Part shown: positions 9,535 through 9,896 of the stretch, piece after piece
Position numbering within the stretch: position 1 is the first letter of the stretch
How the letters are laid out: every line of letters begins with the position of its first letter
From: a virus
Lineage: Duplodnaviria; Heunggongvirae; Uroviricota; Caudoviricetes
DNA: 15,979 nt
Virus record (IMG/VR): IMGVR_UViG_2548876865_000009
Coordinates: 1-15,979 of that record
Direction: 5' to 3' (one strand)
Notes under the pieces: model-generated
The model's database searches: none
Told to the model about the DNA's origin: nothing
The model's input: only the letters and a program-made list of their open reading frames with translations
Translations under genes and position numbers: made by a program

Positions 9535-9896
9535 ATGCTCATAGATTTGGTTTTACCTTACCCGCCGACGGTGAACACTTACTGGAGACGCCGTGGCAGC
9601 ACATATTTTGTATCAAAAGCAGGGGAGCGTTATCGCCGGCAGTGGCGCTTATTGTTCGCCAGCAGCGACTGAAATTAAGCCTGTCCGGACGGCTGGCAAT
9701 AAAAATTATTGCAGAGCCACCGGATAAGCGTCGTCGCGACCTGGACAATATTCTGAAAGCACCGCTGGATGCGCTGACGCATGCGGGAGTGCTTATTGAT
9801 GACGAGCAGTTTGATGAAATCAATATTGTACGTGGTCAGCCAGTATCTGGTGGACGGCTGGAAATAAGAATTACAGAGGTGGGTGTGCATGAATAA
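9535..9896 (+). pseudogene. rusA: RusA Holliday-junction resolvase homolog split by a 1-nt frameshift near 9637-9641
   Basis: ATG 9535 with AAGAGGTG Shine-Dalgarno gives the RusA-type N-terminus MLIDLVLPYPPTVNTYWRRRGSTYFVSKAGERYRR, then stops at 9670-9672; the RusA-like C-terminus (AVALIVRQQ...DKRRRDLDN...GGRLEIRITEVG) is in the other frame (track ORF 9528..9896, whose GTG start lies inside the RBS). Confidence 0.7.

Follow-up and report, generated by a model that had tools for sequence, protein, structure and literature searches.

Does the rusA gene of a lambdoid Escherichia coli prophage, whose two conserved halves are read in different frames, carry a real inactivating deletion, a sequencing error, or a frame change that the ribosome or the polymerase can repair? 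We addressed this question in a window of 15,979 nucleotides (the whole stretch of DNA that was analysed), and found that the gene is one base short at a defined site and that the same deleted allele is present in other E. coli prophage assemblies.

Prophage setting and reading frames of rusA

The window (1-15979) corresponds to contig AIBV01000127.1 of the draft WGS assembly GCA_000446965.2 in its full length. It comes from a lambdoid E. coli prophage and covers its early-right and regulatory portion, which includes the repressor region, replication genes of O-like and DnaC-like type, a nin-type region, the antiterminator gene Q and the beginning of the lysis genes. Between the nin-region genes and Q, the gene order DUF968-rusA-Q is found both in the window and in homologous prophages (Table 1). 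The DUF968 gene ends with TAA at 9520-9522, and the rusA ATG follows 12 nt further on; at the other end, the ATG of Q overlaps the rusA stop codon (ATGAATAA), an overlap that is also annotated in an intact homologue. The DUF968 protein has a CxxC...HH...CxxHH motif and a sub-threshold HNHc_6 match (23.1 bits, cut-off 26.6), and it may represent a second nuclease beside rusA that could add redundancy.

Table 1. Features of the rusA locus (window coordinates)
Feature	Position	Strand	Basis
DUF968 gene, HNH-like motif	8473..9522	+	Pfam DUF968, 255.9 bits, and weak HNHc_6
rusA Shine-Dalgarno AAGAGGTG	9523..9530	+	Same sequence in intact homologues
GTG ORF, 122 aa, as reported by gene callers	9528..9896	+	ORF list
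Product of the true rusA start, 45 aa	9535..9672	+	ORF translation
1-nt deletion site	9634..9642	+	Alignments with intact alleles
rusA remainder, residues 36-120 of the repaired protein	9640..9896	+	-1 frame, TAA 9894-9896
Antiterminator Q gene	9889..10578	+	Pfam Phage_antiter_Q (PF06323), 279 bits

The earlier note had placed the rusA start at an ATG with a Shine-Dalgarno sequence and its first stop at 9670-9672, and both the sequence reading and the ORF list agree with this. From the ATG at 9535, the translation runs through 35 RusA residues (M1-R35, MLIDLVLPYPPTVNTYWRRRGSTYFVSKAGERYRR) and then through the out-of-frame QWRLLFASSD to TGA, so that this frame ends after 45 codons and the locus holds no uninterrupted ORF of ~120 aa. 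The 45-aa product contains none of the catalytic residues and on its own has no Pfam match. Both the Arg-rich stretch that binds DNA and the catalytic residues D69, D71, K75 and D90 are read in the -1 frame. These frame relationships are deterministic features of the sequence, and chance therefore plays no part in them.

The 122-aa ORF of the gene callers combines the two frames in a misleading manner. Its GTG (9528-9530) lies within the Shine-Dalgarno sequence itself, as the earlier note had observed, and it has no usable ribosome-binding site upstream. Its first ~36 residues are rusA sequence read out of frame, and from about residue 37 it continues as AVALIVRQQRLKLSLSGRLAIKIIAEPPDKRRRDLDNILKAPLDALTHAGVLIDDEQ...GGRLEIRITEVGVHE, carrying AVALIV...PPDKRRRDLDN...GGRLEIRITEVGVHE. 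Pfam RusA matches the unrepaired ORF over residues 37-116 only (profile 31-124, 40.4 bits), and this restriction indicates that its N-terminus is not RusA. The exact 122-aa ORF is on record for one contig only, which is the window itself.

Other parts of the window contain further accessory elements. A hok/sok-type toxin-antitoxin module is located in the nin-type region at 7289-7613 (Rfam sok at 7289-7463 with 113.5 bits, Hok/Gef ORF at 7401-7613), and a HigB-toxin-like ORF (976-1278) and an HTH antitoxin-like ORF (1281-1640) adjoin the repressor region. Downstream of Q, a trio of tRNAs (12238-12487; a CAT anticodon, Arg-UCG and Arg-UCU) is followed by two sRNAs (12597-12865; STnc100 with 176.7 bits, and a minus-strand AgvB whose 56.6 bits barely exceed its gathering score of 56) and an esterase gene (13009-14958; SASA/DUF6645). 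ARAGORN assigns the CAT tRNA to Met, and PGAP annotates its counterpart in the homologous prophage as Ile. This layout of tRNA trio, sRNAs and esterase is that of the surroundings of the stx locus in Stx phages. The sole gene call in the interval between the tRNAs and the esterase is a 116-aa minus-strand ORF with no Pfam match, and from these gene calls we take the prophage to be without stx.

One missing base and the repaired protein

The window was aligned with the chromosomal alleles of strains 48 and STEC2017-197 and with phage mEp460, and the only gap attributable to the window in rusA is at the deletion site. The window reads CGCCGGCAG here, with GG at 9638-9639, while the intact alleles read CGCCGGGCAG or CGCCGTGCAG; that is, intact prophage rusA genes have CGCCG(G/T)GCAG and the window has CGCCG-GCAG, exactly one base short. 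A second 1-nt gap near the 3' end (GAGGT-GGGTG) represents an extra G in strain 48 only, and the window is not deleted there. The alignment thus puts the missing base precisely where the earlier note had proposed a single-nucleotide frameshift from the two frames. That note had also named an outcome that would speak against it, namely intact homologues with the same nucleotides at this site; all of those examined carry the extra base.

With one G inserted after 9639, the two frames join into one ORF of 363 nt (120 aa), which confirmed the RusA identity assigned earlier to a gene with its C-terminus in the other frame. The repaired protein matches Pfam RusA (PF05866) over the entire profile (1-124 of 124) with 63.9 bits (cut-off 22.8), and E. 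coli RusA (PDB 1q8r / 2h8c) over residues 5-117 with E=1.4e-24. Residue for residue, it is the sequence of WP_123129561.1, an E. coli RusA family protein found on 3 contigs, whose ORF is uninterrupted. In the alignment with 1q8r, PPDKRRRDLDNILKA stands against MPDRRRRDLDNLQKA and LIDDEQ against WLDDAQ, and D69, D71, K75 and D90 of the repaired protein align with D70, D72, K76 and D91 of E. coli RusA. The catalytic Asp and Lys residues and the Arg-rich stretch (KRRR) are thus kept, and all of them are located downstream of the frameshift. The residues reported to be critical for catalysis in E. coli RusA are D70, D72, K76 and D90/D91, plus the Arg-rich 66-69, and the monomer forms one compact unit with a four-stranded sheet and two helices (PMC1636454).

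The closest characterized relatives are the RusA proteins of the E. coli K-12 prophage DLP12 (PDB 1q8r, 2h8c) and of phage 82, which have 120 aa, as does the repaired protein. The repaired protein aligns end to end with 1q8r, with D70, D72, K76, D91 and the Arg-rich 66-69 conserved, and its gene occupies a prophage nin-type position just upstream of Q. Unlike these relatives, the window gene has its frame broken after codon 35, and as encoded the protein cannot be made. Because sequence, catalytic residues and genomic context all place the gene in the RusA family and its frame is nevertheless broken, we classify it as a rusA pseudogene. The 45-aa peptide has neither the Arg-rich stretch nor the catalytic residues, and an active resolvase would thus not be expected from the frameshifted allele.

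Could either fragment still function? A C-terminal fragment might be made by re-initiation at GTG 9528 or by starting at GTG 9642, or the 45-aa peptide might have acquired a new role. GTG 9528 is just 6 nt past the DUF968 stop codon, which makes termination-reinitiation conceivable, and the C-terminal frame retains all catalytic residues; however, the 122-aa ORF swaps the first ~36 residues of RusA, the first third of what is a compact single domain, for unrelated sequence, GTG 9528 lacks spacing to any ribosome-binding site, GTG 9642 is 15 nt from the nearest GGAG, and there is no ATG within the C-terminal frame. Moreover, the N-terminal strand is probably part of the RusA sheet, and its loss should then block both folding and dimerisation. 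We therefore regard a functional split gene as extremely improbable.

Occurrence of the deletion and alternatives to a true mutation

Relatives of the locus are common. In a megablast search with 9480-9940, homologues were found in 3,274 of the 5,426 complete E. coli genomes (median 1 and maximum 8 places matched per genome), and these were annotated as DUF968, RusA family crossover junction endodeoxyribonuclease or antitermination protein Q. The deletion is rare: a 61-nt probe over the site matched 980 complete E. coli genomes, and the match was gapless in only two, those of the bovine faecal strains OkiPb01678 and OkiPb01712 from Okinawa. The exact 36-nt pattern over the deletion is also present in the IMG/VR contig UViG_2545824644_000012. 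No match to the deletion pattern was found in the species-representative genomes searched, and the deletion occurs in none of the deposited phage genomes, where the best match is 92.4% identical. In the literature, we found neither a report of a rusA frameshift nor a citation of the assembly accession.

All four deleted copies are identical over 9535-9856, and they have in common synonymous A variants at 9586 and 9621 that are absent from the aligned intact alleles. In the PGAP annotation, the identical allele appears as 'RusA family crossover junction endodeoxyribonuclease, frameshifted', with entries ACZ5Q8_RS17520 in OkiPb01678 and ACZ45U_RS17640 in OkiPb01712; the OkiPb01712 chromosome has a further, intact rusA elsewhere. 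When the repaired gene was compared with complete E. coli genomes, no intact gene came closer than that of strain 48, with just 97.3% identity, and the immediate intact ancestor is therefore absent from these genomes.

These copies bear directly on whether the strain in fact has an intact 120-aa rusA from which one G of a GGG run was dropped in sequencing or assembly. Several observations are in line with such an error: the window is one entire contig of a draft assembly, the missing base sits in a short G run that most intact alleles have at this site (an error-prone context on some platforms, and with the draft status a caveat to a real deletion), the exact 122-aa ORF with the window's 3' end is known from the window contig only, and the intact protein is present in other strains. 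Against this, three more assemblies, which stem from at least one further study and one further data source, carry the identical deletion, and no other indel is found over ~5 kb common with the OkiPb01712 prophage, where homopolymer lengths all agree. Such agreement is unlike the outcome of error-prone homopolymer calling, and since three data sets agree on every homopolymer length over 5 kb, including the deletion site, they argue strongly for a true deletion inherited by descent. Although an error was one of the possibilities raised in the earlier note, it is largely rejected by the three other assemblies, and we consider it unlikely.

The recoding event that the same note had also offered, as a -1 ribosomal frameshift or transcriptional slippage that restores some full-length RusA, fared still worse. 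The shift needed is -1, a Shine-Dalgarno-like GGGGAG is located at 9622-9627, ~10 nt upstream of the site, and the allele has outlasted at least one recombination event; but GGGGAG is also found in intact alleles, where it codes for Gly-Glu. No X XXY YYZ slippery heptamer occurs in the overlap at 9535-9672, and the tRNAs on CGC, CGG and CAG have no way to re-pair in the -1 frame, as is directly evident from the sequence. For transcriptional slippage, an A/T run of ~7 or more at the site was looked for and none was found; the longest runs in 9535-9672 are of 4 nt (TTTT, AAAA, GGGG), all of them away from the deletion site. Downstream, the 80 nt at 9641-9720 have a folding energy of -21.9 kcal/mol, which is not unusual, as shuffled sequences average -19.8 (z = -0.67). 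Finally, a frameshift with a gapless match in 2 of 980 genomes is not conserved, and strain 48, STEC2017-197 and mEp460 each contain the extra base and read through in one frame. Since neither a heptamer nor a long homopolymer was found and the downstream fold is unremarkable, recoding is rejected, and we assign it only a minimal probability. What stands of the three possibilities is the pseudogene, supported by the three additional assemblies and by the PGAP annotation.

Taken together, the frameshift is very probably a real and inherited one-base deletion that inactivates rusA in a lambdoid prophage. The base lost would be the G or T of CGCCG(G/T)GCAG at 9634-9642. As a caveat, the rusA gene in the window shows no damage beyond the frameshift. 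With the four deleted copies identical over 9535-9856, the event is recent, and a loss of function is probable.

A different rusA frameshift was observed in strain STEC1587 (locus L003, 1556-1917), where GTGG(C/T)CAGCC near the 3' end lacks one base and PGAP again annotates the gene as frameshifted; strain CFIAFB20190157 has the same 461-nt span as STEC1587 and may share its lesion. As the STEC1587 frameshift is separate, rusA lesions recur. The OkiPb01712 prophage (L009) contains two more frameshifted genes, one of the YdaS family (2438-2711) and a hypothetical gene after the holin (15901-16459), and these fit either general prophage decay or residual assembly errors; both lie in regions that are not comparable with the window.

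Mosaicism and significance of the deleted allele

The deleted allele is part of a larger shared block. From ~4900 to 9856, the window and the OkiPb01712 prophage differ by 6 mismatches and 0 gaps (~99.9% identity over ~5 kb), and the identity collapses from 9857 on and upstream of ~4900. These two positions represent mosaic breakpoints, with an identity of 73-88% just upstream of the block; at the other end, the switch to another Q module falls within the final 40 nt of rusA, beyond which both the rusA 3' end and the Q module are unrelated. The contig UViG_2545824644_000012 is 99.96% identical to the OkiPb01712 prophage, and the other three deleted copies differ from the window in the rusA 3' end and in the Q gene, which has 822 nt in them. 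Thus, the OkiPb01678 and OkiPb01712 pseudogenes have the deletion and the sequence of the window up to 9856, with ~5 kb upstream in common, but differ from it in the last ~40 nt of rusA and in an 822-nt 'antitermination protein' gene that replaces the window's PF06323 Q. Because the deleted allele is found on two rusA 3' ends and Q genes, at least one recombination must have occurred at the end of rusA after the deletion. We propose that the mutation would have arisen once in a prophage lineage and then spread through modular recombination, so that the same deleted allele would now be joined to two 3' ends and two Q antiterminator modules.

How might such a loss be tolerated? Lambdoid phages can do without their nin region, and RusA is encoded in this nin-type region in hosts that commonly have more rusA copies, so that its loss would probably be tolerated and is plausibly neutral. 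Translation of rusA ends 217 nt earlier in the window allele than in intact alleles. Since Q has its own ribosome-binding site (GAGGTG, 7 nt upstream of ATG 9889), Q expression and late-gene control need not rely on coupling to rusA. One could instead suppose that the deleted allele was kept and spread by selection, because the loss of RusA, the 45-aa peptide or a rare restoration of the frame benefits the prophage or its host. We consider this very unlikely; if it were true, the two Q-module backgrounds would reflect selection and not hitch-hiking.

Overall, the frameshifted rusA is ordinary prophage decay, and with the identical lesion already annotated in RefSeq it is nothing categorically new. 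Its biological weight is small, as resident prophages are expected to contain frameshifted accessory genes, and the phage can dispense with RusA, which is redundant in hosts with several lambdoid prophages. For annotation, the 122-aa GTG ORF is an artefact that should be replaced by a rusA pseudogene. For the evolution of these prophages, the shared deletion provides a handy marker of a ~5-kb early-region block that has been transferred among prophages whose Q modules differ.
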